From an uncultured Actinomycetes bacterium (GTDB taxonomy: Bacteria > Actinomycetota > Thermoleophilia > UBA2241): DNA of 64,000 nucleotides. The stretch spans positions 553,914 to 617,913 of the forward strand of contig CAVRZA010000011.1 of NCBI GenBank assembly GCA_963725665.1, given 5' to 3'. Under the pieces are notes generated by a model, which was not told where the DNA came from, made no database searches, and worked only from the letters and a program-made list of their open reading frames with translations. Below, piece after piece: positions 1-29,431 of this stretch (positions within the stretch are counted from its first letter, which is position 1; each line of letters opens with the position of its first letter). The translations under genes and the position numbers were made by a program.

Positions 1-1653
1 GAGGCCGAAGGCCGAGAACATGTGGCCGTTGAAGACGGGGTCGGCGTTGATCCTCGGATATTCCTGCAGCCACAGGTAGCCGTTCTTGTCGACGCTGACG
101 ATCCAGGGTGAGGACGAGGGCCCGGGGCGCAAGAAGCTGGCGAAGGTGCCCTGGGCGGCCTGCAGATAGATCGCCTTTCCCGTTGCTTCGTGCAGGCCGC
201 CGAAGAGCGCCATGCTGAGCCCATGTCCCATGGCCGAGCACCACGGCGGCGTCATCAACGGCCAGTCGAAGTCGTTGGGGTGGTACCACGCGCCTCCGAC
301 GAGGATCCTGCGTGCTATGAGGCGCTGCGCCTGCGCCTCGGCGCGTGCCAGGTAGAAGGGATCGTCCGTGAGAGTGTAGGAGGCGAGGTTCTGGAGACCG
401 TAGCTGGCCTGGGCGCTGACGTGGTTGTAGAGCTTGCCGCCGAACAGTGACAGGCGCACACCATGCTCGTCGTGCAAGCCGGTGTCGACTTTGGGAATGG
501 GCCCACCCATGTTCAGCAACGGATAGTCCGCGGGGGGGATGTCGCGCAGCGCTATGCCTGAGACGCGAAAGCGGAAGGGCAGCCTGATGCTCCAAGGTTC
601 CGTGACCTTGAGCCGGTTGCCGGCCACCGCGGTCTGCTGGTTGCCGGCGCCGTCGACGGCGTAGACGAAGAAGCGGTAGCTGCCCCTGGAGAGCCGGCAG
701 GCGAAGCTGGCTGTGAGGAGGGTGTTCACCGGCTTGGCGTGGTAGGTGAGGGTCTTCACCACCGTGCCGGCGCTGTTCCTGATCCTGATCGTCACCTCGG
801 CCGTGCCGCCGTTGGGCGCGGCATCGACCACCTTGTAGGCGAGGCTGGCGCTGCGGTAGCGCATGGCGCTGGCCGCCGAGGGCGCCCGGGTCGCCGGGCG
901 CACCGTGTCGATGCCGAAGCTGAGGCTCTCTGCGCCCTCCACGTTGCCAGCGTTGTCGGCAGAGCGGTAGAGGACGGTGTGGAGACCGTCGCCGGAGTGG
1001 TCTCTGGGCGCCGCCACCGTGAGCAGCGCGCCGCGCACCCAATCGGCGGCGTCGAGCTTGTACTCCGTGTAAGCGACGCTGCTGCCGGCGTCGGCGGCGG
1101 CGCTGAAGGTCAGCGTCAGAGGCGCCCTGTACCAGGTCGCGCCCTGGGCTCCCGCGGCTGTGGTGGCGGGTGGGGTGGTGTCGATCCTCACGTTCACGCT
1201 GCCCGGCGGGTCCTCGAGGTTGCCGGCGTTGTCGGCCGAGCGGAAGAGGACGGTGTGGAGACCGTCGCCGGAGTGGTCCGACGGCGCTGGCACGGTGGCC
1301 TGGGTGTCGCGCACCCAGTAGGCGCCGTCGAGCGAGTACTCCGTGTAGGCGACGCCGGTGCCCGTGTCGGTCGCCGTGAAGGTCACGGTGACGGGGGCGT
1401 TGTGCCACAAGTCGTCGGCGCCGCTAGCCACGGTCACCGGTGGGAGGGTGTCGTCCGCTGCGGCCGTCGCGACGTCGGTCGCCGCCGGCACGGAGGGGAC
1501 CGGTGACGTTATGGCGAGAGCAGGGGCGAGGTCGGCTCCGGGCGGTGGCCAGTCGGCTTGCGCCGTCTCGGCCGGAGAGACGGTCGCGAGCCCGGCCGTC
1601 ACGAAGACGGCCGCGAACAGTAAGAATCCCAGGACACGCGAGAACCCGGGCAC
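1..1653 (-). CDS. Secreted multidomain protein, partial (C-terminus beyond window start): signal peptide, two ~92-aa Ig-like repeats, a third Ig-like module, D-glucuronyl C5-epimerase-like C-terminal domain
   Basis: Absent from the ORF track because it runs off the window edge. My minus-strand translation from GTG 1653-1651 gives VPGFSRVLGFLLFAAVFVTAGLATVSPAETAQA (signal peptide). Two repeats follow, each with HSGDGLHTV(L/Y)(F/Y)RSADNAGN(L/V)E, with a 276-nt period at DNA level (about 962 vs 1238). Then comes ...PPWCSAMGHGLSMALF..., which resembles the C5-epimerase C-terminal family. The frame is open down to nt 1. Confidence 0.7.
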   Translation of the reverse strand, partial: MPGFSRVLGFLLFAAVFVTAGLATVSPAETAQADWPPPGADLAPALAITSPVPSVPAATDVATAAADDTLPPVTVASGADDLWHNAPVTVTFTATDTGTGVAYTEYSLDGAYWVRDTQATVPAPSDHSGDGLHTVLFRSADNAGNLEDPPGSVNVRIDTTPPATTAAGAQGATWYRAPLTLTFSAAADAGSSVAYTEYKLDAADWVRGALLTVAAPRDHSGDGLHTVLYRSADNAGNVEGAESLSFGIDTVRPATRAPSAASAMRYRSASLAYKVVDAAPNGGTAEVTIRIRNSAGTVVKTLTYHAKPVNTLLTASFACRLSRGSYRFFVYAVDGAGNQQTAVAGNRLKVTEPWSIRLPFRFRVSGIALRDIPPADYPLLNMGGPIPKVDTGLHDEHGVRLSLFGGKLYNHVSAQASYGLQNLASYTLTDDPFYLARAEAQAQRLIARRILVGGAWYHPNDFDWPLMTPPWCSAMGHGLSMALFGGLHEATGKAIYLQAAQGTFASFLRPGPSSSPWIVSVDKNGYLWLQEYPRINADPVFNGHMFSAFGL

Positions 1654-5695: not shown

Positions 5696-7138
5696 GTGGT
5701 GAGGGTGAGCGAGACAGGATCCAGCCCGGCGGCACGGCTGAGGGTCTGGGGCGAGGACGCTTGCCGCCGTGTGCACGAGACGACGCTGCGGCTTCTCGCC
5801 CAGACCGGCGTCGAGATGCACCACGCCGAGGCGCGCGAGCTGTGCCGCGCGGCCGGGGCGCGCGTCGAGGGCACCCGCGTGCGCCTGCCGCGCGATCTCG
5901 TCGAGCGCTCCTTGGATGCGGCGCCGAAGTCGTGCGTGCTGCCCGGGCGGGGGGCGGGCGCGCCGCCGCTGGTCCTCGAGCAGGGCCATTCCTACTTCGG
6001 CACTGGGCCCGACTGCCTCTACGTCTGCGATCTCGACAGCGGAGAGCGGCGCCGCGCCCGCCTCTCCGACGTGACGGCCGCCGCCGCGCTGTGCGAGAAG
6101 CTGCCGCAGATCGACTTCGTCATGTCGATGGCCCTGCCCGAGGATATCGAGGGCGACGTCGTCGACCTGGCGCAGCTCGCCGCCATGCTGGCCGCCACGA
6201 GCAAGCCGATCGTCGTCTCGAGTCCCTTCGGCGGCGAGTCGCTGCCGGTGATGCGCGAGATGGCGGCGATCTGTGGCGAGGCAGGCAGCTTCGCCTGCCT
6301 CGCCATGACCTCGCCGCCGCTCAGCATCGACGAGGTCGCCGCCGACAAGACCATCGCCTGCGCGCGACTCGGCGTACCGCTGGTGATGTCTACAGCGCCT
6401 TCGGCCGGCTCGACCGGGCCGGCTTCACTACCCGCTTTGGTCCTCATCAGCAACGCTGAGATCCTCGCAGCGTTGGTGCTCCACCAGCTCGCGTCGCCCG
6501 GGGCGCCCTTCGTCTACGGCGCCGGTGTCGGGGTGATGAACATGCGCACCGGCACCGATCCCTACGTGCCGCCCGGGTCCTGGCTCGGTGACCAGGCGGG
6601 CTGTGACCTGGCCGCCTTCTACAGCCTGCCGAGCTGGGCGTACGCGTTCTGCTCCGACAGCAAGGTCCTCGACGAGCAGTGGGCGCTCGAGGCTGGCATC
6701 GCCGCGATCCTCGGCGCCGCCTCGCGGGCGACGCTGCTGCACGACGTCGGCTACCTCGAGACCGGGTTGCAGGCCTCTCTCGAGGCGATCGTCCTCGGCA
6801 ACGAGGTGGCCGGCTACGCGCGCGCCTTCCTCCAGGAGCTACCGGTCGACGAGGAGGCGCTGCTGGTCGACGAGATCGCCGCCGTCGGGCCTGGAGGCGC
6901 GCATCTGAGCCGCCCCTTCACACGCGCACACTATCGCGACTTCTGGCAGGCGGAGCTGCTCGATCAGTCCGCGCACGAACGCTGGCTTGCGAGTGGAGGA
7001 CAGACGCTCCGCGAGCGGCTCCGCGCCCGGACGCGCGAGCTCTGCTCCTCGCCGCCCGCCTTCTCGCTCGACGCTTCGGTCAGAGAGCGTGTCGACCGCC
7101 TCGTGAAGGAACGGGTCCGGCGAGCGCCGACCCGGTAG
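5696..7138 (+). CDS. Trimethylamine methyltransferase (MttB) superfamily protein, non-pyrrolysine type
   Basis: 480-aa ORF starting at GTG 4 nt after the upstream stop. Overall resemblance to the MttB family (recognised by eye). No in-frame TAG. Confidence 0.8.
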   Translation: MVRVSETGSSPAARLRVWGEDACRRVHETTLRLLAQTGVEMHHAEARELCRAAGARVEGTRVRLPRDLVERSLDAAPKSCVLPGRGAGAPPLVLEQGHSYFGTGPDCLYVCDLDSGERRRARLSDVTAAAALCEKLPQIDFVMSMALPEDIEGDVVDLAQLAAMLAATSKPIVVSSPFGGESLPVMREMAAICGEAGSFACLAMTSPPLSIDEVAADKTIACARLGVPLVMSTAPSAGSTGPASLPALVLISNAEILAALVLHQLASPGAPFVYGAGVGVMNMRTGTDPYVPPGSWLGDQAGCDLAAFYSLPSWAYAFCSDSKVLDEQWALEAGIAAILGAASRATLLHDVGYLETGLQASLEAIVLGNEVAGYARAFLQELPVDEEALLVDEIAAVGPGGAHLSRPFTRAHYRDFWQAELLDQSAHERWLASGGQTLRERLRARTRELCSSPPAFSLDASVRERVDRLVKERVRRAPTR

Positions 7139-12013: not shown

Positions 12014-13178
12014 TCACGAGGCCTCGACCACGTCAGCCGTGGCCTTGCTGGGGTCGGCCACCACCAGGACGTCGATGTAGTCGGCCGTCGCGCATGATCT
12101 TGGCGATGAGCGACGAACCCCGGAGCGACCTCGTCGAAGCGGGATCGCTTCGACTGGCCCATGAGGACGTACGTGGCCCGGTTCTCCCGGGCGAACTTCA
12201 GGATCTCGTCGGCCTCCGAATCACCGTTGAGCTCTACGACCTGGCCGCCGAGATTGCGGGCCAGGTCGTACGCTCGTTGAGCTCGCGCTGATGGCCGCCG
12301 AGCGTCTCGCCCGCCGTGTGCACGTGGACGACCCAGAAGTGCCCCTGCAGACGCTTGGCAAGCCTGTAGCCACGGCGCACCAGCTTCTTCGCGACCGAAC
12401 CGCCTTTGATGCAGACGACCACTCGGTCTTCCGTCGCCCAGGGCGCTGTGGTCTCGTGGTCCTCCAAGTAACTCTCGAGGGTCTCGTCGACCTCCTCGGC
12501 GGTCTTGCGCAGCGCCAGCTCGCGCAGCGCCACGAGGTTTCCGCGGCGGAAGAAGTTGCGCAGCGCGCCGGGGATCTTCTCGAGGTCGTAGACCACGCCG
12601 CGGTTGAGGCGGTTGATGAGGGCGTCGGCTGTGAGGTCGACGAGCACCACCTCGTCGGCGCGATCGAGCATGGAGTCGGGTATCGTCTCGCGCACGCGCA
12701 CGCCGGTGATCTCGAAGACGGTGTCGTTCAGGCTCTCGAAGTGCTGCACGTTGACAGTGGAGATGACGTCTGATGCCGGCGTCGAGGATGTCGTCCACGC
12801 TCTGCCAGCGCTTCTCGTGGTCGGTCCCGGGGATGTTGGTGTGCGCCAGTTCGTCGACGAGGACGACACCGGGACGACGGGCGATGACCGCGGCGGTGTC
12901 GATCTCCTCGAAGACTTACGGCCGCGATAGTCGATTGCCTTGCGGGAAGGATCGGCAGTCCTTCGGCGAGTTCCTCTATCGCCTGCCGACCGTGCGTCTC
13001 GACGAAGCCGACGACGATGTCCTCGCCGCGCGACAGGCGGCGGTGGGCCTCGAGCAGCATGGTGAACGTCTTGCCGACACCGGGGGCGTAGCCGAGGAAG
13101 ATCTTGTGGCGCCCGGCTTGCGGAGCGTCTTCAGGGTGAAGAGGTCGCCGGTCTCTGGGCTGAGTCGTCCTCTTCCAT
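12014..13178 (-). pseudogene. Stand-alone KdpD N-terminal sensor domain + Usp domain protein; about 8 frame breaks
   Basis: Pieces read HKIFLGYAPGVGKTFTMLLEAHRR, VLVDELAHTNIPGTDHEKRW, STVNVQHFESLND, LVALRELALRKTAEEVD, then Usp-like VVCIKGG...YVLMGQSKRSRF...DVLVVADP. No kinase domain follows. Confidence 0.75.
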
Positions 13179-13183
13179 CACAC

Positions 13184-13766
13184 TCACTGTAGGGCGTCTG
13201 TGCGGCGTCGAGGGCGAGATTCAAAGCGGAGCACGTTCACACGAGGTTCGCCAAGAAAGCCGAGCTGGCGTCCGGTGGTGTGTCGTCGATAAGCGCGAGC
13301 ACGGCGGAGACGGTCGTGCCGCGGGCTGCGGCGACGCGCGCCGCCTGCGCGCGCGCGTTGGCGATGGTGATGTCGGGATCGAGACCACTCGCCGAGGTCG
13401 TCACCATGTCGATCGGCACGGCGCCGAATCGCAGCCCGGGGTTGGCGGCGATCTCCTGCTTGACGGAGGTCTGACCCGGTCGGCGAGCGTCTTGTTGGTC
13501 GGCCCCAGGTTCGAGAACGACGAGGCCATCGCGTCGTAGCCCTCCCCGGCGGCGGATAGGCGAGGCTGGAAGTACTTGGCCGCCGTGAAGTTCTGTCCGA
13601 TCAGGCTTCGACCCGATCGACTGCTGCCGTTCTTCTTGACGAGGCTGCCGTTGGCCTTGCCGGGAAAGATGACCTGTGCCAGGCCGGTCATGACCAGCGG
13701 GTAGATGATGCCCGCTATCACTGCTGTGACGATCGTCATGCGAATCGAGATCCAGACGTATTTCAC
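13184..13766 (-). pseudogene. kdpC: K+-transporting ATPase subunit C, at least 3 frame breaks in the 3' half
   Basis: MKYVWISIRMTIVTAVIAGIIYPLVMTGLAQ...NLGPTNKTLADRV, then PIDMVTTSASGLDPDIT... and GFLGEPRVNVL / LNLALDAA in other frames. The exact stop is unresolved. Confidence 0.7.
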
Positions 13767-13784
13767 GATGCCTCTCCTCGGTCC

Positions 13785-17594: not shown

Positions 17595-17684
17595 CTAGAA
17601 CTTCTCTGGTCTCAGAAGGGAGTAGAAGAGGTAGATGATCAGGGCGACTGCAATGATGCCGAGGATGAGGTAGGCGACGTTCAC
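17595..17684 (-). CDS. kdpF: K+-transporting ATPase subunit F (operon 1)
   Basis: My translation gives MNVAYLILGIIAVALIIYLFYSLLRPEKF (29 aa) from GTG 17684. It has the typical KdpF C-terminal LLRPExF and ends 15 nt before kdpA. Confidence 0.8.
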   Translation of the reverse strand: MNVAYLILGIIAVALIIYLFYSLLRPEKF

Positions 17685-17690
17685 CTTCGT

Positions 17691-17780
17691 CTACAGGCGA
17701 GGAGCCAGCCGAGCGTAGGCGAGAGAGAGGAAGAAGAACGCCATCACCACGGCGACGCAGGCAACATCACCCATCCCCAT
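17691..17780 (-). CDS. Second small hydrophobic peptide upstream of kdpF (29 aa)
   Basis: MGMGDVACVAVVMAFFFLSLAYARLAPRL. ATG 17780 is preceded by GGAAGGAG. The stop lies 6 nt before the kdpF GTG. Confidence 0.5.
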   Translation of the reverse strand: MGMGDVACVAVVMAFFFLSLAYARLAPRL

Positions 17781-17947: not shown

Positions 17948-17989
17948 GTGATGCCCGCCGTCCTCGGGCGGGAGGACGGCGGGCATCAC
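17948..17989 (-). terminator. 18-bp perfect hairpin after the small membrane protein gene and upstream of the kdp-1 promoter region
   Basis: GTGATGCCCGCCGTCCTC-gggcgg-GAGGACGGCGGGCATCAC. Confidence 0.55.
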
Positions 17990-18004
17990 TCTGACTAAGG
18001 CGCG

Positions 18005-18265
18005 TCAGTGACGGTAGGAGTGCGCAAACCTCGGAGTGCGCACGTACCTGGCGGGCGCAGGCTTCTCGGCCGGACGCTCGTCGGCCAAACGCTCCTGGGC
18101 CGGGCGCTTCGCCAGGATGAGACGGGCGACCTCACTCTGCTCCCGCCGATAGCGCTTGATGGCGCGCTCCTCGAAGATGAGCCAGAGAAGGTAGACCAGC
18201 GCACCCGCTGCCGCGACGGTCGCTGCGACCGCCACGAACGCAATCAAATCTGCTGCAACTGCCAC
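18005..18265 (-). CDS. Small membrane protein sp1 (86 aa): one N-terminal TM helix + basic tail
   Basis: GTG 18265 is preceded by GGGAGG (7-nt spacer). Sequence: MAVAADLIAFVAVAATVAAAGALVYLLWLIFEERAIKRYRREQ...FAHSYRH. It is the C-terminal part of track ORF 18005..18454. A composite promoter lies directly upstream. Confidence 0.6.
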   Translation of the reverse strand: MAVAADLIAFVAVAATVAAAGALVYLLWLIFEERAIKRYRREQSEVARLILAKRPAQERLADERPAEKPAPARYVRTPRFAHSYRH

Positions 18266-18472: not shown

Positions 18473-18553
18473 CTACTCGTGCGTGGTCAGCTTGTATCCG
18501 GCAAGCAGGAAAATGGCCATCAGAGCCAGCCACACAAGTGCTTCCAGAGCCAC
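18473..18553 (-). CDS. Small hydrophobic peptide sp2 (26 aa)
   Basis: TAAGGAGGTG lies 6 nt before GTG 18553. Sequence: MALEALVWLALMAIFLLAGYKLTTHE. The overlapping track ORF 18348..18560 is Arg-rich junk. Confidence 0.45.
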   Translation of the reverse strand: MALEALVWLALMAIFLLAGYKLTTHE

Positions 18554-18578
18554 CGTCCACCTCCTTACATGCACAAGC

Positions 18579-18644
18579 AGGGTACCCAGGGTCCTCTTAA
18601 GGCCTCGTGAAGCGAGGGCGTAGAGGCGTGAAGTTTGCGTGAAC
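18579..18644 (-). promoter_or_regulatory. Composite promoter copy A (drives sp2)
   Basis: In gene orientation: GTTCAC-gcaaa-CTTCAC-N15-CTTCAC-gaggc-CTTAAG-aggaccctGGG-TACCCT. Confidence 0.65.
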
Positions 18645-18847
18645 ACCCTGAGCGTCGTTCGCGACCACAGGCGATCGAAGATCAGGGGGTCGAGTCACAC
18701 ACGGTCCGCCCAACCGGAGAGGCACGAGCGCGATCGAGGAAGAGCGCCACGCTCGGTTCCGTCTGCCCCGCGCTGGGCTTGCCGACGGCCTTTAGATCTG
18801 CCGACCCTCGTTCCTCTCTGCGCCTCTGTCGGCGCTGCGGGGACCGG

Positions 18848-18913
18848 CTTTATCTAATCTTTATGCACTTGTGACTACGTTTTACTAATGGTTAACGTCG
18901 TTTCGGGAACATG
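18848..18913 (+). promoter_or_regulatory. Composite promoter copy for the kdp-2 operon
   Basis: CTTTAT-ctaat-CTTTAT-N15-TTTTAC-taatg-GTTAAC-gtcgtttcGGG-AACATG. The spacing is the same as in the other copies, but the -10 position deviates from TAnnnT. Confidence 0.6.
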
Positions 18914-18996: not shown

Positions 18997-19080
18997 ATGC
19001 CCGATTTCGTTGCAGTACTTATCGCCTTGGCGTGCTTCGCGGTGCTGTTCGTGCTCCTCTACGCCCTGGAGCGCGTGTGA
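18997..19080 (+). CDS. KdpF-like small hydrophobic peptide upstream of kdpF (27 aa)
   Basis: MPDFVAVLIALACFAVLFVLLYALERV. GGAGG lies 9 nt upstream. The stop overlaps the kdpF ATG (TGATG). Confidence 0.55.
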   Translation: MPDFVAVLIALACFAVLFVLLYALERV

Positions 19081-19169
19081 TGGCCGCCGCAGACGTCTTC
19101 GGATTGGCGATCGCGGTGGCGATCGCCGTGTATCTCCTCTACGCACTCTTCAGAGGGGAGCGATTCTGA
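19080..19169 (+). CDS. kdpF: K+-transporting ATPase subunit F (operon 2)
   Basis: MAAADVFGLAIAVAIAVYLLYALFRGERF (29 aa). The stop overlaps the kdpA ATG (TGATG). Confidence 0.8.
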   Translation: MAAADVFGLAIAVAIAVYLLYALFRGERF

Positions 19170-20860
19170 TGACCCCCGAAGGTATCGGCCAGATCGCCCT
19201 CTACGTCGCCCTCCTGATCGCGTTCGCCTATCCACTAGGCCGTTACTACATGGCCTGGGTCTACACGCACGGGCGCGACGATCCTGTGGAGCGGGGCATG
19301 TTCCGGCTGTTCGGGCGTGGCAGCGGCAGCGAGCAGGACTGGAAGAGCTATGCCAAGACTGTGCTGATCTTCAGTCTCGTCTTCTCCGGCGTGCTCTATG
19401 CGATCATGCGTCTCCAGGCCCGCCTGTTCCTCAACCCGGACCACCTGGCCGCGGTTCCCTGGCACATCTCGCTCAACACAACCGCTAGCTTCATCACGAA
19501 CACCAATTGGCAGTACTACGCCGGCGAATCGACGATGTCGTACCTGAGCCAGATGGCCGGCCTGGCGGTGCAGAACTTCGTCTCCGCCGCCGTGGGCATG
19601 GCGGTGCTGGCGGCCGTCGTGCGCGGCTTCTCGCGCCGCTCGCGGCACGAATTGGGCAACTTCTGGCGCGATCTCTATCGCTCCCTGGTGTACATCCTGC
19701 TGCCACTTTCGATCGTCGTCGCGGTGATCCTGATCTCGCAGGGCGTGCCCCAGACGTTCCACGCGCACGCCACGGCGACCACGCTGCAGGGCGCCCATCA
19801 GACGATCGCCCGTGGCCCCGTCGCCTCGCAGATCGCCATCAAGCAACTGGGCACCAACGGCGGCGGCTACTACAACTCGAACTCCGCTGTTCCTCTCGAG
19901 AATCCGACAGGGCTCTCGAACTTCGCCGAGATGCTCGCGATCCTGCTGATCCCCGCCGCCCAGGTGTTCATGTTCGGGCGCATGGTGCGAGCCCGCCGCC
20001 ACGCCTGGATGGTTTTCGCGGCGATGTTCGTCATGTTCGTGATCGGTATCGGCGTCAACCTGGCGGCCGAGCAGCACGGTTCGCAGGTGCTGCGCGGCGC
20101 AGGCGTGAACATCGCCGCGGGCCAGGGGCAGAGCGGCGGCAACATGGCCGACAAGGAGGTCCGCTTTGGCATCGCCGCCACAACGAACTGGACGGTCGCT
20201 ACGAGCGACGCCTCGAATGGCTCGGTAAACGGCGGTTTCGATGCCAACACCGCCATTGGCGGCGCCGTGCCCCTCGTCAACCTCTTCGTGGGTGAGGTCA
20301 TCTTCGGCGGCGTCGGCTCCGGACTGTACGGCATGTTCTTCTACATCGTGATCGCCGTGTTCATCGCCGGCCTGATGGTAGGTCGCACGCCGGAGTGGCT
20401 GGGCAAGAAGATCGAGGCGCGTGAGATCAAATACGCCGCTATCGGCGCGCTCTTCGTGCCTACCATGGTGCTCGTCATGACTGCGATCGCCGTGGCCGCG
20501 CCGGCGGGGCTCGCCTCGATCTTCAACCCGGGCGCCCACGGCTTCACGGAGGCGCTCTACGCGTACGACTCGCAGGCGAACAACAACGGCAGCGCCTTCG
20601 CTGGCTACGGGGCGACCACCTTCTCCGCCACCTTTGGCACGATCGCGCTCTACCTCGGCCGCTTCGCGCCGCTGCTGGCGGCGCTGGCCCTCGGGGGCTC
20701 GCTCGCGGGGAAGAAGGTAGCACCCGAGTCCGCGGGGACCTTCCGCACCGACGGCCCTACCTTCGTCGTCCTGCTCGTCGGCGTCATTGCGCTCACCGCC
20801 GGTCTGATGATCCTGCCCGCACTGAGCCTCGGGCCAATCGTGGAGTCACTGATGCACTGA
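19169..20860 (+). CDS. kdpA: K+-transporting ATPase subunit A (operon 2)
   Basis: MTPEGIGQIALYVALLIAFAYPLGRYY... This is track ORF 19010..20860 trimmed to ATG 19169. It is a paralog of the operon-1 KdpA. Confidence 0.95.
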   Translation: MTPEGIGQIALYVALLIAFAYPLGRYYMAWVYTHGRDDPVERGMFRLFGRGSGSEQDWKSYAKTVLIFSLVFSGVLYAIMRLQARLFLNPDHLAAVPWHISLNTTASFITNTNWQYYAGESTMSYLSQMAGLAVQNFVSAAVGMAVLAAVVRGFSRRSRHELGNFWRDLYRSLVYILLPLSIVVAVILISQGVPQTFHAHATATTLQGAHQTIARGPVASQIAIKQLGTNGGGYYNSNSAVPLENPTGLSNFAEMLAILLIPAAQVFMFGRMVRARRHAWMVFAAMFVMFVIGIGVNLAAEQHGSQVLRGAGVNIAAGQGQSGGNMADKEVRFGIAATTNWTVATSDASNGSVNGGFDANTAIGGAVPLVNLFVGEVIFGGVGSGLYGMFFYIVIAVFIAGLMVGRTPEWLGKKIEAREIKYAAIGALFVPTMVLVMTAIAVAAPAGLASIFNPGAHGFTEALYAYDSQANNNGSAFAGYGATTFSATFGTIALYLGRFAPLLAALALGGSLAGKKVAPESAGTFRTDGPTFVVLLVGVIALTAGLMILPALSLGPIVESLMH

Positions 20861-21447
20861 TGCGTACGCTCCTTCGCACACTCATCGCCGTCGTCGCGCT
20901 CACCGCGGTCTTCGGCCTCGCCTACCCTGCGATCATGGTCGGTTTCGCATCGCTCTCGTTCTCGGGCAAGTCACAAGGCAGCCTGATCTACCACAACGGC
21001 AGCGTGGTGGGTTCGCGCCTGGCGGCGCAGGAATTCACCGACCCCCGCTACTTTCATGAGCGGCCCTCGGCTACGTCGCCCGCGTACAACGCCGGTGGGA
21101 CGACCTTCGCCAACCTGGGGCCCACAAACCCCGATCTCACAAAAGCGGTGCGCGAGCAGGCGCAGGCGATCCTCAAGCTCGAGGGTCCCTACAACCCGGG
21201 TCTGACGATCGGCGATATCCCCGTCGACGCCGTCACGACCTCCGGCTCCGGCATCGACCCTCATGTCTCACCTGCTTACGCGGAGCTGCAGGCTCCTCGC
21301 ATCGCCGCTGTGCGGCAACTGCCTCTCGCCACGGTCGAGAGGCTGGTCAAAGACAACACTGACGGTCGCAGCCTAGGCTTCCTCGGTGAGCCTGGTGTGA
21401 ACGTCCTCGAGCTCAACCTTGCGCTCGACAGGCTAGGAGGCAAGTAG
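20860..21447 (+). CDS. kdpC: K+-transporting ATPase subunit C (operon 2), placed between kdpA and kdpB
   Basis: 195 aa with [23 protein letters not shown] and [18 protein letters not shown]. Confidence 0.95.
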
Positions 21448-21449
21448 GC

Positions 21450-23510
21450 ATGGCAAGGCGCTCAAGCGTCTTCTCGCGCGAGCTCGCGCTCGCAGCGGTG
21501 CGCGATTCCTTCCCCAAGCTCAACCCACGCAACCAGATCAGAAACCCGGTCATGTTCGTGGTCGAGATCGGCAGCGTCATCACAACCGCGATCTTCTTCA
21601 TCGACCTCGTCCGCGGTCAGACCGGCCAGCTCTGGTTCGTCGGAACTATCTCGGTCTGGCTCTGGCTCACGGTGCTGTTCGCGAACTTCGCGGAGGCGAT
21701 CGCCGAGGGCCGCGGAAAGGCACAGGCAAATGCCCTGAGGGCGACCAGGACGACCACGATCGCCACCCGGCGGCGCGAGAGCGGTGCCCTCGAGCAGGTC
21801 CCCGCGCCGGAGCTCTCGCGTGGGGACGTCGTCATCGTTACGGCGGGCGAGATCATTCCCGCCGACGGCGAAGTGATCGAAGGCATCGGCTCGGTCGACG
21901 AGTCGGCGATCACTGGCGAGTCGGCCCCCGTGATCCGCGAAGCCGGCGGCGATCGCTCTGCCGTCACTGGCGGCACCAGGCTCCTCTCAGACCGACTCGT
22001 CGTCGAAGTCACCCAGGAGGCGGGCAAGTCGTTCCTCGAGAGGATGATCGCACTGGTCGAGGGCGCGGAGCGGCGAAAGACGCCGAACGAGATCGCGCTG
22101 AACATCCTGCTCGCTGGCCTGACGATCACCTTTCTCGTCGCGGTCGTCACCTTGCGGCCCTACGGACTCTATGCGCACACCAGCCTTTCGCAGACGGTGC
22201 TGATCGCACTGCTCGTCGCCCTGATCCCGACCACGATCGGTGCCCTGCTCTCAGCGATCGGCATCGCCGGTATGGACCGGCTCGTGCAGCGCAACGTGCT
22301 AGCCATGTCAGGGCGCGCAGTCGAGGCGTCGGGCGACGTTGACGTGTTGCTCCTCGACAAGACCGGCACGATCACGCTGGGCAATCGACAGGCGGTCAAC
22401 TTCATCCCCGCTCCCGGTGTGGACGAGCGGGAGTTCGCCGAGGTCGCGCAGCTGGCGTCGTTGGCCGATGAAACCCCCGAGGGTCGTTCCATCGTCGTTC
22501 TCGCAAAGGAACGCTTCAACCTGCGTGAGCGCACCCTGGGGGAAGAGGAAGTCGAGTTCGTGCCGTTCACTGCCGTCACACGTATGAGCGGCGTCAACCT
22601 CGAGGGCAGCATGATCCGCAAAGGCGCCGCCGACGCAGTAAGAGGCTTCATCGAGGAACGCGGCGGCACCGCCATCCCCGCCGAAATCCACGCGACCGTA
22701 CAGAGGGTCGCCGAGGAGGGCGGGACGCCCCTCGTCGTCGCCAAGGACGGCTCCGCACTCGGTGTCATCCAGCTGAAGGACGTCGTCAAGGGTGAGCTGC
22801 GTGAGCGCTTCGACGGCATGCGGAAGATGGGCATCCGCACCGTGATGATAACGGGCGACAATCGAGTCACCGCAGCTGTGATCGCCAAGGAGGCCGGTGT
22901 CGACGACTTCCTTGCGGAGGCAACGCCGGAGGCAAAACTCGCACTCATCCGCGAGGAGCAGGCGCGCGGCCGTATGGTCGCCATGACCGGTGACGGCACT
23001 AACGATGCCCCGGCGCTGGCCCAGGCCGACGTGGGCGTGGCCATGAACGCCGGGACCTCCGCCGCCAAGGAAGCCGGCAACATGGTCGACCTCGACAACA
23101 ACCCGACGAAGCTGATCGAGATAGTAGAGGTCGGCAAGCAGCTCCTGATCACCCGCGGCGCCTTGACCACGTTCTCGATAGCCAACGACGTGGCCAAGTA
23201 CTTCGCCATCCTGCCGGCGATGTTCGCCTTCACGTATGCGACGCATCCCGGCGAGCGCGGGCCGCTCAACTCGCTCAATATCATGCACCTGGGAGATCCG
23301 AAGAGCGCGATCATCTCCGCGATCATCTTCAACGCCCTGATCATCGTGGCGCTCATCCCCCTCGCCCTCAAAGGCGTCCGCTACCGCGCCATCGGCGCCA
23401 CTGCGCTGCTGCGGCGCAACCTCCTGATCTACGGGCTCGGCGGCATCGTCTTGCCGTTCGTGGGGATCAAGCTGATCGACCTCGTCGTCCACAACGTGCT
23501 TGGAGCTTAG
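21450..23510 (+). CDS. kdpB: K+-transporting ATPase subunit B (operon 2)
   Basis: 686 aa with [17 protein letters not shown] and [18 protein letters not shown]. Confidence 0.95.
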
Positions 23511-23617
23511 TGCAGCGGTAGCGCGGCCCGTCGAGTGTGTGGCAGGGCAATGGCCGGTCCTCCGTGCGGCAGAGCGAGCAGAGTCCCAGCATCTCTTTTG
23601 ATGCTGTCGTGGAGCGC

Positions 23618-23683
23618 ATTAAGCGCATCTTTATGCCGGCAGAACTGCCCTTTACGGGTGATTAACGCGGTGCCGGGTAGCTT
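23618..23683 (+). promoter_or_regulatory. Composite promoter copy for the cNMP/CBS/DUF294 gene
   Basis: ATTAAG-cgcat-CTTTAT-N15-CTTTAC-gggtg-ATTAAC-gcggtgccGGG-TAGCTT. Confidence 0.65.
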
Positions 23684-23776
23684 CTGCGGGCGGGCTGCGT
23701 CCTTGGCGGCGCAACCCGCTGTCTCGTGCGCCGTTTTCGCGGGGCGCTGCACCGGACGTCAAGCAGGAGGCGGGCT

Positions 23777-25612
23777 GTGGCGGTCACAGCTCTCAAGAAG
23801 AGCCCAACGAATGAGCGGGTCGGATTCCTCTCGCGCCTCGAACTGTTCAAGGGACTCGACCAGGACGAGCTCGAGCGGATAGCAGCGGCGATCTCGGTGC
23901 AGATCGCCGCTGCCGGAGAGGCGGTCCAAGTGGAGAGCGGCATCCCCGGCGACCACCTGTTCGTTGTGCTTGACGGCACCCTCGAGCTCATCCACAAGGG
24001 CGCCGTCGTGGCCATCCTCTCCAAAGGGGAGGTGTTCGGACACTCTACCCTGCTCACCGGACTGCCACCCGAGTTCACGACACGTGCGGGAACCCCTTCC
24101 ACGCTCTGGCGCATCCCGAAAGACATCGCCGTCGACCTCCTGAGTCGGCCTGCAGGGGTGAGGTTCGTCGCCGACACGCTGCGCGAGCAGCTGATCCAAG
24201 CGGCGCGATCCACGAACGGGGCTGCCGATCTCGCTGCGCGGCCGGTGGTGTCGCTGGTGCGCGGAGCACCCGTGTTCTGCGAGGCGGACGCGACGATCCG
24301 TGAGGCGGCGACGCTCATGAGCGCCAGCAGAGCGAGTGCGCTCTTGGTGCGGACGGTCGGGGGTCTTGGCATCGTCACTGACTCCGACCTGCGCGAGAAG
24401 GTCGTGGCCGGCGACGTTCCCCGAGACGCCGCGGTCACTGCCGTCATGACGACCCCGGTGGAGAGCGTCGCTGCCGACCGGCTGGGTCCCGAGGCCGCGG
24501 TCCAGATGATGGCCGCCGGCGTCAACCATCTCGTTGTCGAGGACAAGGCCGGCAGGCTCGTCGGCGTCCTGTCGGCCGCGGACCTCGTTTCCCTCGACGC
24601 GCGCAGCCCCTTCGCCCTGCGGCGCCGGATTCAGGAGGCACGGAACGAAGACGATCTTGTGGCGGCATCCAGGGATCTACCTGCCCTGTTCGCCGAGCTG
24701 CTCGACGCCCGGGTCGATGCCCCTGCTGTGGCTCGGATCCTGACCGTGCTCTGCGATGCCATGACAGTGCGTCTGCTGGAGCTCTTCTTCGACCGGCATG
24801 GCCAGCCACCAGTCGGCTACGCCTGGCTTTTGTTCGGCAGCAGCGCCCGGAACGAGCTCACTCTGGCCTCCGACCAGGACAACGGCATCGCCTACGAGGA
24901 CGGCGACGACCCCCGCGTCGAGGACTACTTCCGCGAGCTGGCCGAGGACGTCAACGACGGGCTGGTCCGCAGCGGCTTCGCCGCCGACCCCCACGGCACG
25001 GTGGCGCAGAACTGGCAGTGGCGCCTGCCCCTCTCGCTGTGGCGCTCCGTCTTCGCCCGCTCGCTCGAGGACAGGGACGTCAATCGCCTCGCCCGTGCCA
25101 GCGTCGCCTTCGACTTCCGGCAGCTGGCCGGGGACTTGGCGGTGGCCGGGCCACTGACCGAGATCATGCGCGAGGCGCCCGGCCACCGCCGCTTCATGAG
25201 CGGTCTCGCCCAGCTCGCGACGCGCAACCCCCTGCCGTTGTCTGGCCTGCGCCAGCGGGTGGCGGGTCGGCTCGACGTGAAACGGGAGTGCCTGCGGCCG
25301 ATTCAGAACTTCGCCCGCTACCAGGCCCTGCTGGCGGGCATCAGCGCGCACTCCACCCTAGATCGACTCGCGGGGGTGCGCGAGGCGGGCCTGCTGGACC
25401 GTGAGAGCGAGCAGTCGCTGAGCGACGCCTTCACGATCCTGCTGGGCCTGCAGCTGCGACATCACGGCGACGCCCTGGGCGAGGGGCGCCCCCTCGACAA
25501 CGAGCTCTACGTGGAGAGCCTTCGCCCGCTCACACGGGCCAGCCTCCAGGAGGCGCTGCGCGTGGTGGCGGCCACACAGCGGCGCTTCCCGCGGCTGCCG
25601 GCCCTGGGCTGA
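23777..25612 (+). CDS. cNMP-binding + tandem CBS + DUF294-type nucleotidyltransferase protein
   Basis: GTG 23777 follows AGGAGG. The N-terminus FLSRLELFKGLDQDELERIA...GEVFG is a cNMP-binding fold. Two CBS-like segments follow, then the nucleotidyltransferase motif LLFGSSARNELTLASDQDNGI and a C-terminal helical domain. Confidence 0.8.
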   Translation: MAVTALKKSPTNERVGFLSRLELFKGLDQDELERIAAAISVQIAAAGEAVQVESGIPGDHLFVVLDGTLELIHKGAVVAILSKGEVFGHSTLLTGLPPEFTTRAGTPSTLWRIPKDIAVDLLSRPAGVRFVADTLREQLIQAARSTNGAADLAARPVVSLVRGAPVFCEADATIREAATLMSASRASALLVRTVGGLGIVTDSDLREKVVAGDVPRDAAVTAVMTTPVESVAADRLGPEAAVQMMAAGVNHLVVEDKAGRLVGVLSAADLVSLDARSPFALRRRIQEARNEDDLVAASRDLPALFAELLDARVDAPAVARILTVLCDAMTVRLLELFFDRHGQPPVGYAWLLFGSSARNELTLASDQDNGIAYEDGDDPRVEDYFRELAEDVNDGLVRSGFAADPHGTVAQNWQWRLPLSLWRSVFARSLEDRDVNRLARASVAFDFRQLAGDLAVAGPLTEIMREAPGHRRFMSGLAQLATRNPLPLSGLRQRVAGRLDVKRECLRPIQNFARYQALLAGISAHSTLDRLAGVREAGLLDRESEQSLSDAFTILLGLQLRHHGDALGEGRPLDNELYVESLRPLTRASLQEALRVVAATQRRFPRLPALG

Positions 25613-26035: not shown

Positions 26036-26749
26036 GTGAGCGGAATCCCCGAACGTCCGACTCGCATCCTTGTCGTCGACGACGAGGAGCAGATACGGCG
26101 CGCCGTTGGCTCGATTCTCCGTGCCAGAGGCTATGCACTTGACCTTGCGGCGACTGCCCACGAGGCGCTGCTCACCGCCATCGACCATCCGCCCGATCTC
26201 GTCGTGCTCGACCTCGCGCTGCCCGATCGCAGCGGCATCGAGGTCTGTCGTGAGTTGCGCTCGTGGACGAGTGTCCCAATCCTCGTTCTGTCGGTGCGCT
26301 CTGCTGAGCACGACAAGATCCAGGCCCTGGACGAGGGGGCCGACGACTACCTGACGAAGCCCTTCTCGGCGGGAGAACTGTTGGCGCGCGTGCGCGCCCT
26401 CCTGCGACGGGCGGCGTCACGGACGATACCGCCGCCCGTGGTGGAGGTGGGCGATCTCGTGGTCGACATCGCGCGGCGGCGCGTGACTCTCGCGGGCGAC
26501 GATGTATCCCTCACGCCGACCGAGTTCGACATCCTCGCCTATCTGGCCCGCAACGCCGATCTCGTCGTGACGCAGCGTCAGATTCTCGAGGAGGTATGGG
26601 GACCTGAGTGGGCCGAAGACGCGCAGACGTTGCGCGTGCACGTCAGCCACCTACGCAGGAAGATCGAGCCGACGCCAAGCGGCCGTCGCTACATCATCAC
26701 GGAGCCGCGCATAGGCTTTAGGTTCTCGACCGCTGAGGACTCTACTTGA
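26036..26749 (+). CDS. kdpE: OmpR-family response regulator, KdpE-like
   Basis: Receiver domain (ILVVDDEE...DLVVLDLALPD...KP) plus a winged-helix domain (LTPTEFDILAYLARN...LRVHVSHLRRKIE). Confidence 0.85.
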   Translation: MSGIPERPTRILVVDDEEQIRRAVGSILRARGYALDLAATAHEALLTAIDHPPDLVVLDLALPDRSGIEVCRELRSWTSVPILVLSVRSAEHDKIQALDEGADDYLTKPFSAGELLARVRALLRRAASRTIPPPVVEVGDLVVDIARRRVTLAGDDVSLTPTEFDILAYLARNADLVVTQRQILEEVWGPEWAEDAQTLRVHVSHLRRKIEPTPSGRRYIITEPRIGFRFSTAEDST

Positions 26750-28319
26750 CCCGTGACCGTATCGGCAGCGAGACGGTGAAGCGGGCCCCTGTGGCCTGTG
26801 CCGGCTCCACCCAGACCTCGCCGCCGTGCGCTTTGACGATCTCACGAGTGATAGCGAGGCCGAGGCCGGTACCGGAGGGGGCTTTCGTCCCGGCGCGCTG
26901 CCCCCGGTAGAATTTCTCGAAGATCCGCTCCCGCTCCTCCTCGCCGACGCCGGGCCCCTCGTCCTCGACCCACATCTCCACTGAGCCCACACCAGCTCTC
27001 GCGCCCACTCGCACGGGCGACGACTCGCCCCCGTAGATGATGGCATTCTCGATGAGGTTCTGGAGGACGCGCGCCCATTGCACGAAGTCGACCTCGATGA
27101 GAGGCAGGTCATCGGGCAGCGAGACCTCCACGCGAGCGCGCTGGTGGGCCGGAAGGGCGTCCGTGCTGGCGGAGACGATGTCGGAGAGCTCGTAGAGGTC
27201 CAGTGACGGTTCCCACGAGCGGGCCTCGAGCCGTGAGAGATCGAGCAGTGAGTTGATGCTGTTGTTCAGACGGGCGATGTCGTCGACGATGCCGCGCAGT
27301 TCGTCGTGGACGAGGCGCTCGTCCCAGGCGACATCGCTCTCGAGGAGGTTGCTGACAGTTGCAGTGAGGGCCGCCAGCGGCGTCTTGAGCTCGTGCGACA
27401 CAGAAGAGAGCAGACTCGATTTGAGTCGATCCGCCTCCCGCAGCGCCTCGGCGCGGGTCGCCTTGGCCTGAAGGTTCTGGCGCTCGAGAAAGACGCCGAT
27501 CAGGTTGGCAAGCGATGCCATGAGCCGCGCCTCGGCAGCGTCATACGGGTGCCCGTTGGGCCGGCCGCGCACGGCGAGCACACCCGTGACGCCCGCGCCC
27601 GAGTGGAGCGGGATGAAGGTGCCATTGATGCCTACGAAGGCCTCAGCTGCCGGTTCCCGTAAGAAGGAGGCTCCTTGGAGTTGCTCCTGTCGATGGCTCG
27701 CTGGAAAGCCGAGCGTGCAGTCGTGGCTGTAGGCCCACTGAGCTCCGTCCACAGTGTCTCGGTCGGGCGGCCCGGAAGGTAGCGAGGCGCAGAAGGACAG
27801 CAACCCGCTATCGCTGCCTATGAAGAGCGCCGCCGAGGATGCGCCCACGACATCGATGATCTCTTCGAGGACGGTGTAGGCCATCGTCTCGGTGGACGTT
27901 TCCGAGACCAAGCGGGCGCTCAACCTGTTGAGCACTGCAGTCTCATGCTCTCGTGCGTGGGCTCGCTCCTCGCGGTTCCGCATGCGACCTGTTTGCACCC
28001 CCATGGCCAGACCCACGGCGAGGAAGGCCAGCAGCGACAGGTAATCCTGGGGATCCCTCACCACGAGGGTGTGGTAAGGAGGGAGAAAGAAGAAGTCCCA
28101 GGCGAGGAAGGCGAGGATTGCGGCGACCACCGCCGGCCCCGTGCCGCTCGCCCCCGCGACCAGGACGACTATGAGAAGGTAGAGGAGCGCCCACTGCCCC
28201 TTGGCGAAGTGGTCGCGGCCAGGGAGAAAGATGGCCGTCGACACTGCGATTGCCAGGACGGCGAGCACGTAGCCGTGACGGGCGAGTCGCCTCTGCAGGT
28301 CTTTGACCGTGACCCTCAT
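26742..28319 (-). CDS. kdpD: Sensor histidine kinase corresponding to the C-terminal half of KdpD (DUF4118 TM domain-GAF-HisKA-HATPase)
   Basis: TM block LLYLLIVVLVAG...AWDFFFLPPYHTL, H-box SSVSHELKTPLAAL, N/G boxes NLIENAIIYG and GTGLGLAI. There is no KdpD-N/Usp part. The 3' end overlaps kdpE by 8 nt, convergently. The start could be 28319 or 28328. Confidence 0.85.
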   Translation of the reverse strand: MRVTVKDLQRRLARHGYVLAVLAIAVSTAIFLPGRDHFAKGQWALLYLLIVVLVAGASGTGPAVVAAILAFLAWDFFFLPPYHTLVVRDPQDYLSLLAFLAVGLAMGVQTGRMRNREERAHAREHETAVLNRLSARLVSETSTETMAYTVLEEIIDVVGASSAALFIGSDSGLLSFCASLPSGPPDRDTVDGAQWAYSHDCTLGFPASHRQEQLQGASFLREPAAEAFVGINGTFIPLHSGAGVTGVLAVRGRPNGHPYDAAEARLMASLANLIGVFLERQNLQAKATRAEALREADRLKSSLLSSVSHELKTPLAALTATVSNLLESDVAWDERLVHDELRGIVDDIARLNNSINSLLDLSRLEARSWEPSLDLYELSDIVSASTDALPAHQRARVEVSLPDDLPLIEVDFVQWARVLQNLIENAIIYGGESSPVRVGARAGVGSVEMWVEDEGPGVGEEERERIFEKFYRGQRAGTKAPSGTGLGLAITREIVKAHGGEVWVEPAQATGARFTVSLPIRSRVK

Positions 28320-28469
28320 GCCAAACACACTCTATCGCTGACGGAGGCCCCGGTGGACCTGGCAGACAGTGCCGACGGGGAGCCAGCACACGCGGCTGCA
28401 GCGCGTGTGTGCTTGGATTTCAGGAGCGAAGCTCAGAAAGGAAGCCCTTGAAGGGCGAGCTTCCCGGGC

Positions 28470-28697
28470 TCAGCGCGCGCGATAGGCCGTCACGGCGGTG
28501 CGCCGCTCGGGCGAGCGGCTGAGCTTGCCGCGGACGACTTCGGCTGGCTTGCGTCCGAGCCGGTGAACGCTGACCCTCGCGCGCTGACGAAGAGGTCGGA
28601 CAGTGGACTTCTCGAGGAGGACCATGGCCGCATACGTGAGTCCCAGCACCCACGCTGTCGCGGCCGCAAACAGAAGCACGTCGATGATAAGCTTCAC
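28470..28697 (-). CDS. Small membrane protein sp3 (75 aa): N-terminal TM helix + basic tail, directly upstream of the kinase
   Basis: MKLIIDVLLFAAATAWVLGLTYAAMVLLEKSTVRPLRQRAR...TAYRAR. GTG 28697 is preceded by GAAGG. Same architecture as sp1. Confidence 0.6.
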   Translation of the reverse strand: MKLIIDVLLFAAATAWVLGLTYAAMVLLEKSTVRPLRQRARVSVHRLGRKPAEVVRGKLSRSPERRTAVTAYRAR

Positions 28698-28739
28698 GTC
28701 CAACCTTCAGTCCCCAAGCCAAGTAGGCGATTCGTAATT

Positions 28740-28805
28740 AGGCTACCCGTGGGTGTGTTAAGGACGTGTGAAGCGAACGCACCAGAACATAAAGGTTCTG
28801 TTAAG
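28740..28805 (-). promoter_or_regulatory. Composite promoter copy B (drives sp3 and possibly the kinase)
   Basis: In gene orientation: CTTAAC-agaac-CTTTAT-N15-CTTCAC-acgtc-CTTAAC-acacccacGGG-TAGCCT. Confidence 0.65.
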
Positions 28806-28909
28806 ACGCAGCGCCCGTCCGGGCCCCACGATGTCCGGCAAGTAGTAGCGCGTTAGGCGTCGCTGGCCCCGCGCGACGATCGGCCGGGCCTCCGCGCCTC
28901 GCGCATCAT

Positions 28910-29431
28910 TCAGGCGGCGCGCCGGCGGCCTTGTTGATCCGGTCCGGTGTCCGGTCGCGGGACGATGCCGCCCACGCGCTGCCTGTAGTCGCGATAGTCG
29001 TCGCCGAAGACGGCTTCAAGGTGCGCCTCTTCCCTCGGTATCAGGAGTCGGTACAGGCCGTACGCGACGAACGGGATACTCAGGCCGGGCCACGAAGCGA
29101 CGACGATGACGACCGCCGGGCAGACCAAGAAGATGTAGGCCGCGTAGATGGGGTGGCGTATGTGCCGGAAGGGGCCGTCGGTGACGAGTCGTCCAGTGGC
29201 CCCCGCCTCGCGCACCGCCGTGATGGCGCGCACGTAGAGGAGGCCGGCTGCGACGAGCAGGATGACGCTCACGAGGCGCAGCGCGCCGTTGTGCAGCGCC
29301 GCGATGCGGAGCCCCGGAGCGGCGCGGTCGACGGCCACCACCAGCACGATGTAGGCCAGTGCAAGCGTGACCAAGAGCGGGCCCACGCCCATGGTCGAGC
29401 GCGAAGGGTTGAAGTAGACGCGTCGAGCCAT
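28910..29431 (-). CDS. Isoprenylcysteine carboxyl methyltransferase (ICMT)/phospholipid methyltransferase family membrane protein
   Basis: GPFRHIRHPIYAAYIF...EEAHLEAVFGDDYRDYRQRV. Track ORF trimmed to ATG 29431. Confidence 0.75.
   Translation of the reverse strand: MARRVYFNPSRSTMGVGPLLVTLALAYIVLVVAVDRAAPGLRIAALHNGALRLVSVILLVAAGLLYVRAITAVREAGATGRLVTDGPFRHIRHPIYAAYIFLVCPAVVIVVASWPGLSIPFVAYGLYRLLIPREEAHLEAVFGDDYRDYRQRVGGIVPRPDTGPDQQGRRRAA

Follow-up and report, generated by a model that had tools for sequence, protein, structure and literature searches.

The small open reading frame sp3, which precedes the gene of a short KdpD-type histidine kinase on the same strand of the window (the whole stretch of 64,000 nucleotides that was analyzed), is a real ORF and probably a real, fast-evolving gene of the Kdp regulon. 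It follows a promoter of the KdpE type, and its homologs are found next to the same kind of kinase gene. The product of sp3 is tentatively proposed to be a small membrane protein of the Kdp regulon that would be induced by KdpE and would adjust the output of the split KdpD kinase by associating with it, a role to which we give somewhat less than an even chance. The features of the window are collected in Table 1.

Table 1. Features of the window discussed in the text (positions are those of the window; RR, response regulator; TM, transmembrane).
Feature	Position	Strand	Remarks
Separate KdpD-N/Usp gene	~12015-13175		after kdpC; apparently frameshifted
kdpC1 and KdpD-N/Usp region	~12015..13770	-	broken into several frames
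True KdpF	17595..17684		KdpF-model score 3e-11
Hydrophobic peptide directly before kdpF	17691..17780	-
Stem after sp2	17960..18000	-
sp2	18005..18265		member of the sp2-type family; strong box copy ahead
sp1	18473..18553	-	26-aa TM peptide; KdpE-box promoter of its own
sp1 box promoter	18577-18647	-	KdpE-type box
Fifth, AT-rich box version	18846-18907		ahead of the second pump operon; weak profile match
Second Kdp pump operon, kdpF2 (27 aa)-kdpA2-kdpC2-kdpB2	18997..23510	+	kdpC2 at 20860..21447
Fourth strong box promoter	23616..23684	+	profile match
cNMP-binding/CBS/DUF294 nucleotidyltransferase-like gene	23726..25612	+	box-driven
OmpR/KdpE-type RR gene	26036..26749	+	Pfam; downstream of the box-driven DUF294/CBS/cNMP gene
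Short KdpD-type histidine kinase gene	26742..28319	-	Pfam: DUF4118 four-TM domain, GAF, HisKA and HATPase only
Conserved block TCAGCGATAGAGTGTGTTTGGCATG	28317..28341	-	nearly identical in L051; rest of the spacer unalignable
-10-like TAGAGT	28334-28329	-	9 nt before the kinase ATG (28319-28317); no Shine-Dalgarno motif
sp3-kinase spacer	28320..28469	-	two hairpins; weak terminator-like site at 28456-28444
sp3 coding sequence	28470..28697	-	GTG start, 75 aa and stop
Longer version of sp3	28470..28703	-	TTG start, 77 aa
Putative sp3 5' leader	28698..28738	-	Shine-Dalgarno-like GAAGG at 28708-28704
Composite KdpE-type promoter, copy B	28739..28807	-	ahead of sp3; motif search and nhmmer
Copy B, GGGTAGCCT	28748-28740	-	-10 hexamer TAGCCT at 28745-28740
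Copy B, half-site CTTAAC	28762-28757	-
Copy B, half-site CTTCAC	28773-28768	-
Copy B, half-site CTTTAT	28794-28789	-
Copy B, half-site CTTAAC	28805-28800	-

Of the two versions of sp3 in Table 1, the one that starts with the GTG at 28697 is likelier, because the GAAGG motif is located 6 nt upstream of this GTG and abuts the TTG of the longer version. The sp3 homologs possess GGAGG at an equal spacing, and the site of the window copy, with its GAAGG and GTG start, is weaker. The GC contents at the three codon positions of sp3 were 0.71/0.53/0.78, which resembled those of the kinase gene (0.69/0.47/0.82) and the pattern of the RR gene, and none of the other five frames at this site displayed such a pattern. 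Moreover, an identical protein of 75 amino acid residues was gene-called on an independent Logan contig of 2.5 kb, in which it is encoded between an ICMT-like gene and the kinase gene. Thus, indel errors are unlikely at sp3, though kdpC and the KdpD-N/Usp gene of the window look frameshifted. No Pfam family matched sp3 at E values of 0.01 or less, and no match was found in NCBIfam.

The mean Kyte-Doolittle hydropathy of residues 1–28 of sp3 was 1.85, and the tail (residues 30–75, 46 residues) contained 15 Arg/Lys versus 2 Asp/Glu residues with a net charge of +13. In the AF2 monomer, residues 2–33 formed a helix with pLDDT values above 90, and the remainder was of low confidence with a disordered tail. 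Only about 2 residues precede the TM helix. Given these 15 basic and 2 acidic residues, the positive-inside rule places the tail in the cytoplasm, and sp3 is predicted to have its N-terminus outside, one TM helix (approximately residues 2–29) and a basic, disordered cytoplasmic tail. Hydropathy, charge count and structure model all agree with the sequence-only reading, which described sp3 as a 75-residue protein with an N-terminal TM helix and an Arg/Lys-rich tail. The same reading placed sp3 140 nt upstream of the kinase gene on the same strand; the strand was correct, and the gap measures 141 nt to a GTG at 28328 and 150 nt to the ATG at 28319, which is the better supported of the two starts.

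The box promoters in the window consist of four CTTnAC half-sites, arranged in two pairs with 11-bp spacing, that are followed by GGGTAnnCT. A degenerate motif of this box matched the window 3 times, with 0 matches expected (none in 100 shuffles). With an nhmmer profile, four strong copies were found, of which the E values ranged from 1e-13 to 1e-14 (1.2e-14 for copy B); they are located ahead of sp3, sp1, sp2 and, on the plus strand, the DUF294/CBS/cNMP gene. The same architecture recurs in the loci of relatives. The 22-bp KdpE site of Mycobacterium smegmatis reads CTTGAT-N5-CTTTAC on the other strand, and a GGGTA -10 element was also noted in the paper that describes this site (PMC5401905). 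In its half-site and 11-bp period, the window box agrees with the M. smegmatis site when the latter is read as its reverse complement, and we infer, on good grounds, that the box promoters are under the control of KdpE. Copy B was previously held to be the only recognizable promoter ahead of sp3 and the kinase gene. It is a real promoter copy, but it is not the only candidate, as a conserved box also exists at the kinase ATG.

No sigma-70 consensus promoter was found in positions 28200–29000. A -10-like box just before an ATG that lacks a Shine-Dalgarno motif is the geometry of leaderless or near-leaderless mRNAs in Actinobacteria, and the conserved block at the start of the kinase gene is likely to be the kinase's own promoter, from which such an mRNA would be made. 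In most relatives, GCGTAGAATC was found at the position of this promoter, and GCGTA(G/C)A(A/G)TC was located 40–60 nt ahead of the kinase ATG in 19 of 28 other relatives.

Folding and a terminator scan revealed no terminator above background between sp3 and the kinase gene, and Rfam had no match in this spacer, whose fold as a whole region gave a z score of -0.83 against shuffles. The two hairpins of the spacer had -18 and -17 kcal/mol, which does not exceed the background. The spacers of three related loci (L051, L032, and L052) were likewise without strong stems. Hairpins after the sp3 stop codon were considered as a terminator or attenuator and rejected: their -17 to -20 kcal/mol were no more stable than random 93-nt segments of this GC-rich window (-20.7 ± 6.7 kcal/mol). 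Given that no terminator above background separates the two genes, their co-transcription is plausible. The length of the spacer, however, ranged from 150 to about 670 nt across lineages (610 nt in L051), so that sp3 and the kinase gene do not form a tight operon. The variable spacer together with the conserved -10-like box also means that sp3 and the kinase need not be co-expressed. With a promoter of the kinase's own, autoregulation would add to a basal promoter rather than derive from a single shared one, and inducible read-through from the box promoter on top of the basal kinase promoter is plausible and is the most parsimonious reading. The earlier proposal of kinase autoregulation with co-expression of sp3 is thus tenable as far as read-through goes, but not as the product of one shared promoter, as the kinase very probably has a conserved one of its own.

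A database search with sp3 as a single sequence retrieved no relatives, which reflects the E-value limits of a 75-residue query and not their absence. To widen the comparison, 15 loci with relatives of the kinase were taken from genomes and 33 from metagenomes. Locus L032 has the order box, 82-aa ORF, box, 58-aa ORF, kinase and RR; its 82-aa protein (929..1177) was 38% identical to sp3 over the full length (BLASTP E value 5e-9), and both share an AWVLG(L/I)TY core and a C-terminal R.TAV.A..AR. A profile of these two sequences led to four database proteins (P0144–P0147), the contigs of which show the same layout. The identities of this rare subfamily, i.e., the L032 protein and the four database proteins, to sp3 of the window were 35–38%, with z scores of 13.8–15.7 against composition-preserving shuffles, and none of 2000 shuffles reached the score; the tails alone yielded a z score of about 4.2. 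Its members are similar over the full length, contain the core motif, and are encoded between a KdpE-box promoter and a short KdpD gene. The polypeptide length of the homologs ranged from 75 to 84 amino acid residues, and differences within the AWVLG(L/I)TY block among sp3-type genes were only synonymous or conservative.

The closest relative, L051, has the order ICMT-like gene, box, sp3-like gene and kinase gene, whose product is 84% identical to the kinase of the window; judged by sequence and gene order, it is the syntenic orthologous locus. An sp3-type gene was upstream of and co-oriented with the kinase gene in 4 of 4 contexts (the window, L051, L032, and L052). The sequence-only reading had made its proposal depend on conservation of sp3 next to kdpD-like kinases, and sp3-type genes adjoined a short KdpD in every context recovered. 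The promoter and sp3-like module of L051 (545..921) was about 80–87% identical to that of L032 (806..1177), with about 87% over 47 residues, while the kinases of these two loci were only 56% identical. This difference suggests either that the small-gene module was exchanged independently of the kinase or that divergence was accelerated in the lineage of the window.

Similar to sp3, the proteins of a larger group, the sp2-type family, possess a TM helix with a Glu conserved at its inner end and a basic tail, and they are also similar in size; their genes are likewise the first ones after a KdpE-box promoter and always adjoin a short-KdpD/KdpE pair. This family comprises about 104 clusters at 50% identity (e.g., sp2 of the window and P0001–P0143), whose members are all short, all annotated as hypothetical and all without a Pfam domain. 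At least a dozen loci share a gene order in which the short kinase and the RR are followed by a box and a single-TM ORF of 58–99 aa; after this ORF, there is often a strong hairpin, a weaker box, a 27–29-aa peptide, kdpF and kdpA. The sp2-type genes have GGAGG ribosome sites, and their substitutions by codon position follow the order 3 > 1 > 2. The stems after these genes have -30 to -42 kcal/mol, which is in the top few percent of random segments; located between the small gene and the separately promoted kdpFABC, they are likely to act as factor-independent terminators or attenuators. They are perfect, GC-rich, 13–19 bp long and without a U tail (the window, L002, L016, L001, L013, and L025). 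Between L002 and L016, several stem positions differ and the stability of the stem is equal.

Different from the sp3-type genes, which precede the kinase gene and lack such a hairpin, the sp2-type genes normally follow kdpE and usually have strong hairpins. In the 15 genome loci, no small ORF was found directly upstream of the kinase gene, and the small genes were located after kdpE instead. In L027, a member of the sp2-type family precedes the kinase gene. In L050, a member follows two-component genes and lies ahead of TrkA genes and those of another P-type ATPase, and no Kdp pump is encoded close by; this context ties the sp2-type genes to the signaling pair and not to KdpFABC itself. A similar arrangement in L037 (458..2116) is interrupted by an island with an integrase and an AbiEi-like antitoxin, which separates the kinase gene from a truncated small ORF driven by a box. 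An assignment of sp3 to the sp2-type family by a visual ID..F..A..L.Y...E pattern was withdrawn after HMM and shuffle tests. With a family HMM built without sp3 (hmmsearch, 736 ORFs), sp3 scored 6.1 bits with an E value of 0.59, and the E values of sp2 and the small ORF of L027 were 1e-12 and 3e-17, respectively. Alignment of sp3 to the family with hhalign gave a probability of 82.8% over 34 TM columns only, and the shuffle z score between sp3 and sp2 was 3.8, with the TM similarity (z scores of 1.5–2.3) not above shuffles. Sp3 appears to represent an analogous, separate subfamily that is possibly distantly related to the sp2-type family.

In the window, the kinase and RR genes converge, with an overlap of 8 nt at their 3' ends (26742..26749); in all relatives seen, the RR gene follows the kinase gene on the same strand. 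The RR gene is located 423 nt after the DUF294/CBS/cNMP gene, and the terminator scan found none between them, so that the RR may be autoregulated too, via a passenger gene. The kdpF2-A2-C2-B2 operon is divergent from sp1, sp2 and kdpFABC1. The conserved hydrophobic peptide of 27–29 aa directly before kdpF, MG(D)..Y/C..V.AFF...AYAR.APRL, was also found in L001 (~6880-7050), L013 and L025 and did not match any KdpF model. The broken frames of kdpC1 and the KdpD-N/Usp gene could be assembly indels or pseudogenes; an intact KdpD-N/Usp equivalent of 388 aa is encoded in L049 (8486..9652). It had been argued that the kinase lacks the KdpD-N/Usp half and that an accessory partner is thus plausible. 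The domain content of the kinase bears out the first part, but the half is encoded separately after kdpC, and the argument for a partner needs rewording for this reason. Moreover, the kinase polypeptides of L027 (1224..2939) and L008 (3854..5566) contain an additional TM helix at the N-terminus that is homologous to sp1; the aligned helices are GIVWLVLFAVLLLAGYEM and LVWLALMAIFLLAGYKL, with shuffle z scores of 8.1 (L027) and 6.2 (L008). By this alignment, sp1 and the kinase are connected through gene fusion, which links a Kdp small peptide to this kinase.

In the role that we propose for sp3, a KdpE-type RR would bind the four CTTnAC half-sites in place of a -35 region and turn on sp3, which would place sp3 in the potassium-limitation regulon. 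Sp3 would be translated as a fast-evolving single-pass protein with its N-terminus outside and its basic, disordered tail in the cytoplasm. Transcription from the box promoter would continue across the spacer, which is only weakly structured, into the gene of the short KdpD kinase and add an inducible part to the kinase's own basal, likely leaderless promoter. The TM helix of sp3 would then pair with the four-helix DUF4118 domain and tune the kinase/phosphatase output as feedback of either sign. KdpE binding, induction, read-through and the sp3-kinase interaction are all steps that we infer. The kinase is favored as the partner because of the conserved adjacency and the tie of the larger family to signaling genes, and because an N-out/C-in topology would set the helix beside those of DUF4118. 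The fusion of the box-driven sp1 to the N-terminus of the kinase in two relatives provides indirect support for a modulator role, against which the fast evolution, the weak constraint and the variable spacer count.

How much protein function sp3 has is the point at which two of the three other explanations part from this role. Sp3 and its ortholog of L051 are only 35% identical, while the kinases of these loci are 84% identical, and substitutions between the two sp3 genes, which are near saturation, number 12/10/12 by codon position with no bias. Thus, constraint outside the short core is weak. This fast divergence would fit an sp3 with little or no protein function, either as a leader ORF that tunes kinase transcription or as a decaying copy on a mobile promoter module, and so would the weaker ribosome site of the window copy, the contrast between modules (about 87%) and kinases (56%) in L051 and L032, by which the module may move or recombine, and the presence of a small ORF with nearly all box promoters. 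The frame, the length of 75–84 aa, the TM helix with basic tail, the AWVLG(L/I)TY core and a C-terminal RAR are kept, however, whereas the intergenic DNA is unalignable; leader peptides are usually far shorter, and the similarity of the tails exceeds that of shuffles (z score of 4.2). We regard this explanation as unlikely, if to be taken seriously. That the ORF is altogether spurious and the region is a 5' untranslated leader of the kinase mRNA would agree with its short length, its GC richness, the lack of Pfam and NCBIfam matches and the empty single-sequence search. It is nevertheless highly improbable, as sp3 has the codon-position GC pattern of real genes, homologous ORFs with a strong GGAGG occupy the same position on three other contigs, and the promoter-like box at the kinase start makes a 400-nt leader unnecessary.

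A real Kdp-regulon protein may also have a partner other than the kinase, such as a KdpFABC-type pump or another K+ transporter, or may use its tail to tether the soluble KdpD-N/Usp protein. The sp2-type small genes are usually the first unit before kdpF-kdpA, the window encodes two Kdp pumps and has the KdpD-N/Usp half as a gene apart, and the predicted cytoplasmic tail of sp3 is long and basic, all of which would suit such a partner. Sp3-type genes, however, were always found by the kinase gene and never by a pump; the sp2-type member of L050 accompanies two-component genes with no Kdp pump nearby, and sp3 itself lacks a KdpF signature. A partner other than the kinase is therefore rather unlikely in our estimate, and the kinase modulator remains the reading that we prefer.

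A broader and improbable view is that short KdpD is a modular split receptor, of which the accessory parts are separately encoded and K+-inducible, so that the stoichiometry of small peptides would reprogram the sensor after induction. Because L027 and L008 carry the sp1 helix as part of the kinase, sp1 could represent an additional, detachable TM helix of this protein, with the KdpD-N/Usp half as a free protein. Sp3 and the sp2-type proteins would then be membrane adaptors, whose basic tails would dock the free half or the cytoplasmic domains of the kinase on the TM sensor. If sp3-type and sp2-type proteins act on short KdpD, the principle of MgrB/SafA would extend to potassium sensing by a split KdpD in uncultured Actinomycetota of soil and peat, and they would offer a way into the communication between the detached N-terminal half of KdpD and its TM/kinase half. 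Should they have no action on the kinase, the locus is still a KdpE regulon that is compact and clear in its operator architecture, and it includes two pumps, three small peptides, the DUF294/CBS/cNMP protein and both signaling genes. This regulon could serve as a basis for predicting members in metagenomes.

Comparison with known systems also shows where sp3 stands apart. Similar to sp3, MgrB is a small single-TM protein, and its gene is activated by the cognate RR, as that of sp3 would be. MgrB, however, consists of 47 amino acid residues with a periplasmic Cys-containing segment, while sp3 consists of 75 with a predicted basic cytoplasmic tail and thus a reverse topology. Different from the MgrB gene, sp3 adjoins the kinase gene. 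In a Pfam scan, sp3 did not match the MgrB family PF13998 and the two proteins have no sequence relationship. The resemblance to MgrB that the sequence-only reading had seen is therefore one of proposed circuit logic, in which a membrane peptide encoded in the regulon acts back on the kinase; MgrB is a feedback inhibitor of PhoQ/PhoP in Escherichia coli (PMC2789325). Non-homologous and restricted to its lineage, sp3 is a small membrane protein of a two-component regulon and is encoded beside a split KdpD; both the gene and its regulon context are well supported and undescribed.

Similar to sp3, KdpF is a small TM peptide of the Kdp regulon, and it sets a precedent for contact between a peptide and KdpD in Actinobacteria. 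In a two-hybrid assay, KdpF of mycobacteria bound KdpD, but KdpF overexpression in BCG had no regulatory effect (PMC3618439); thus, binding of sp3 to the kinase would not prove modulation. Sp3 did not match the KdpF models (PF09604/TIGR02115). Whereas KdpF has 29 residues and is encoded right before kdpA, sp3 has 75 residues with a 46-residue tail and is located about 11 kb from kdpA. In E. coli, kdpDE is transcribed from a basal promoter and by read-through from the upstream, KdpE-dependent kdpFABC promoter. The window resembles this arrangement in the likely basal promoter of its sensor kinase and the possible inducible read-through. The upstream unit, however, is the pump operon in E. coli and a small membrane-protein gene in the window, and the RR gene, which is downstream of the kinase gene in E. 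coli, is convergent with it in the window.
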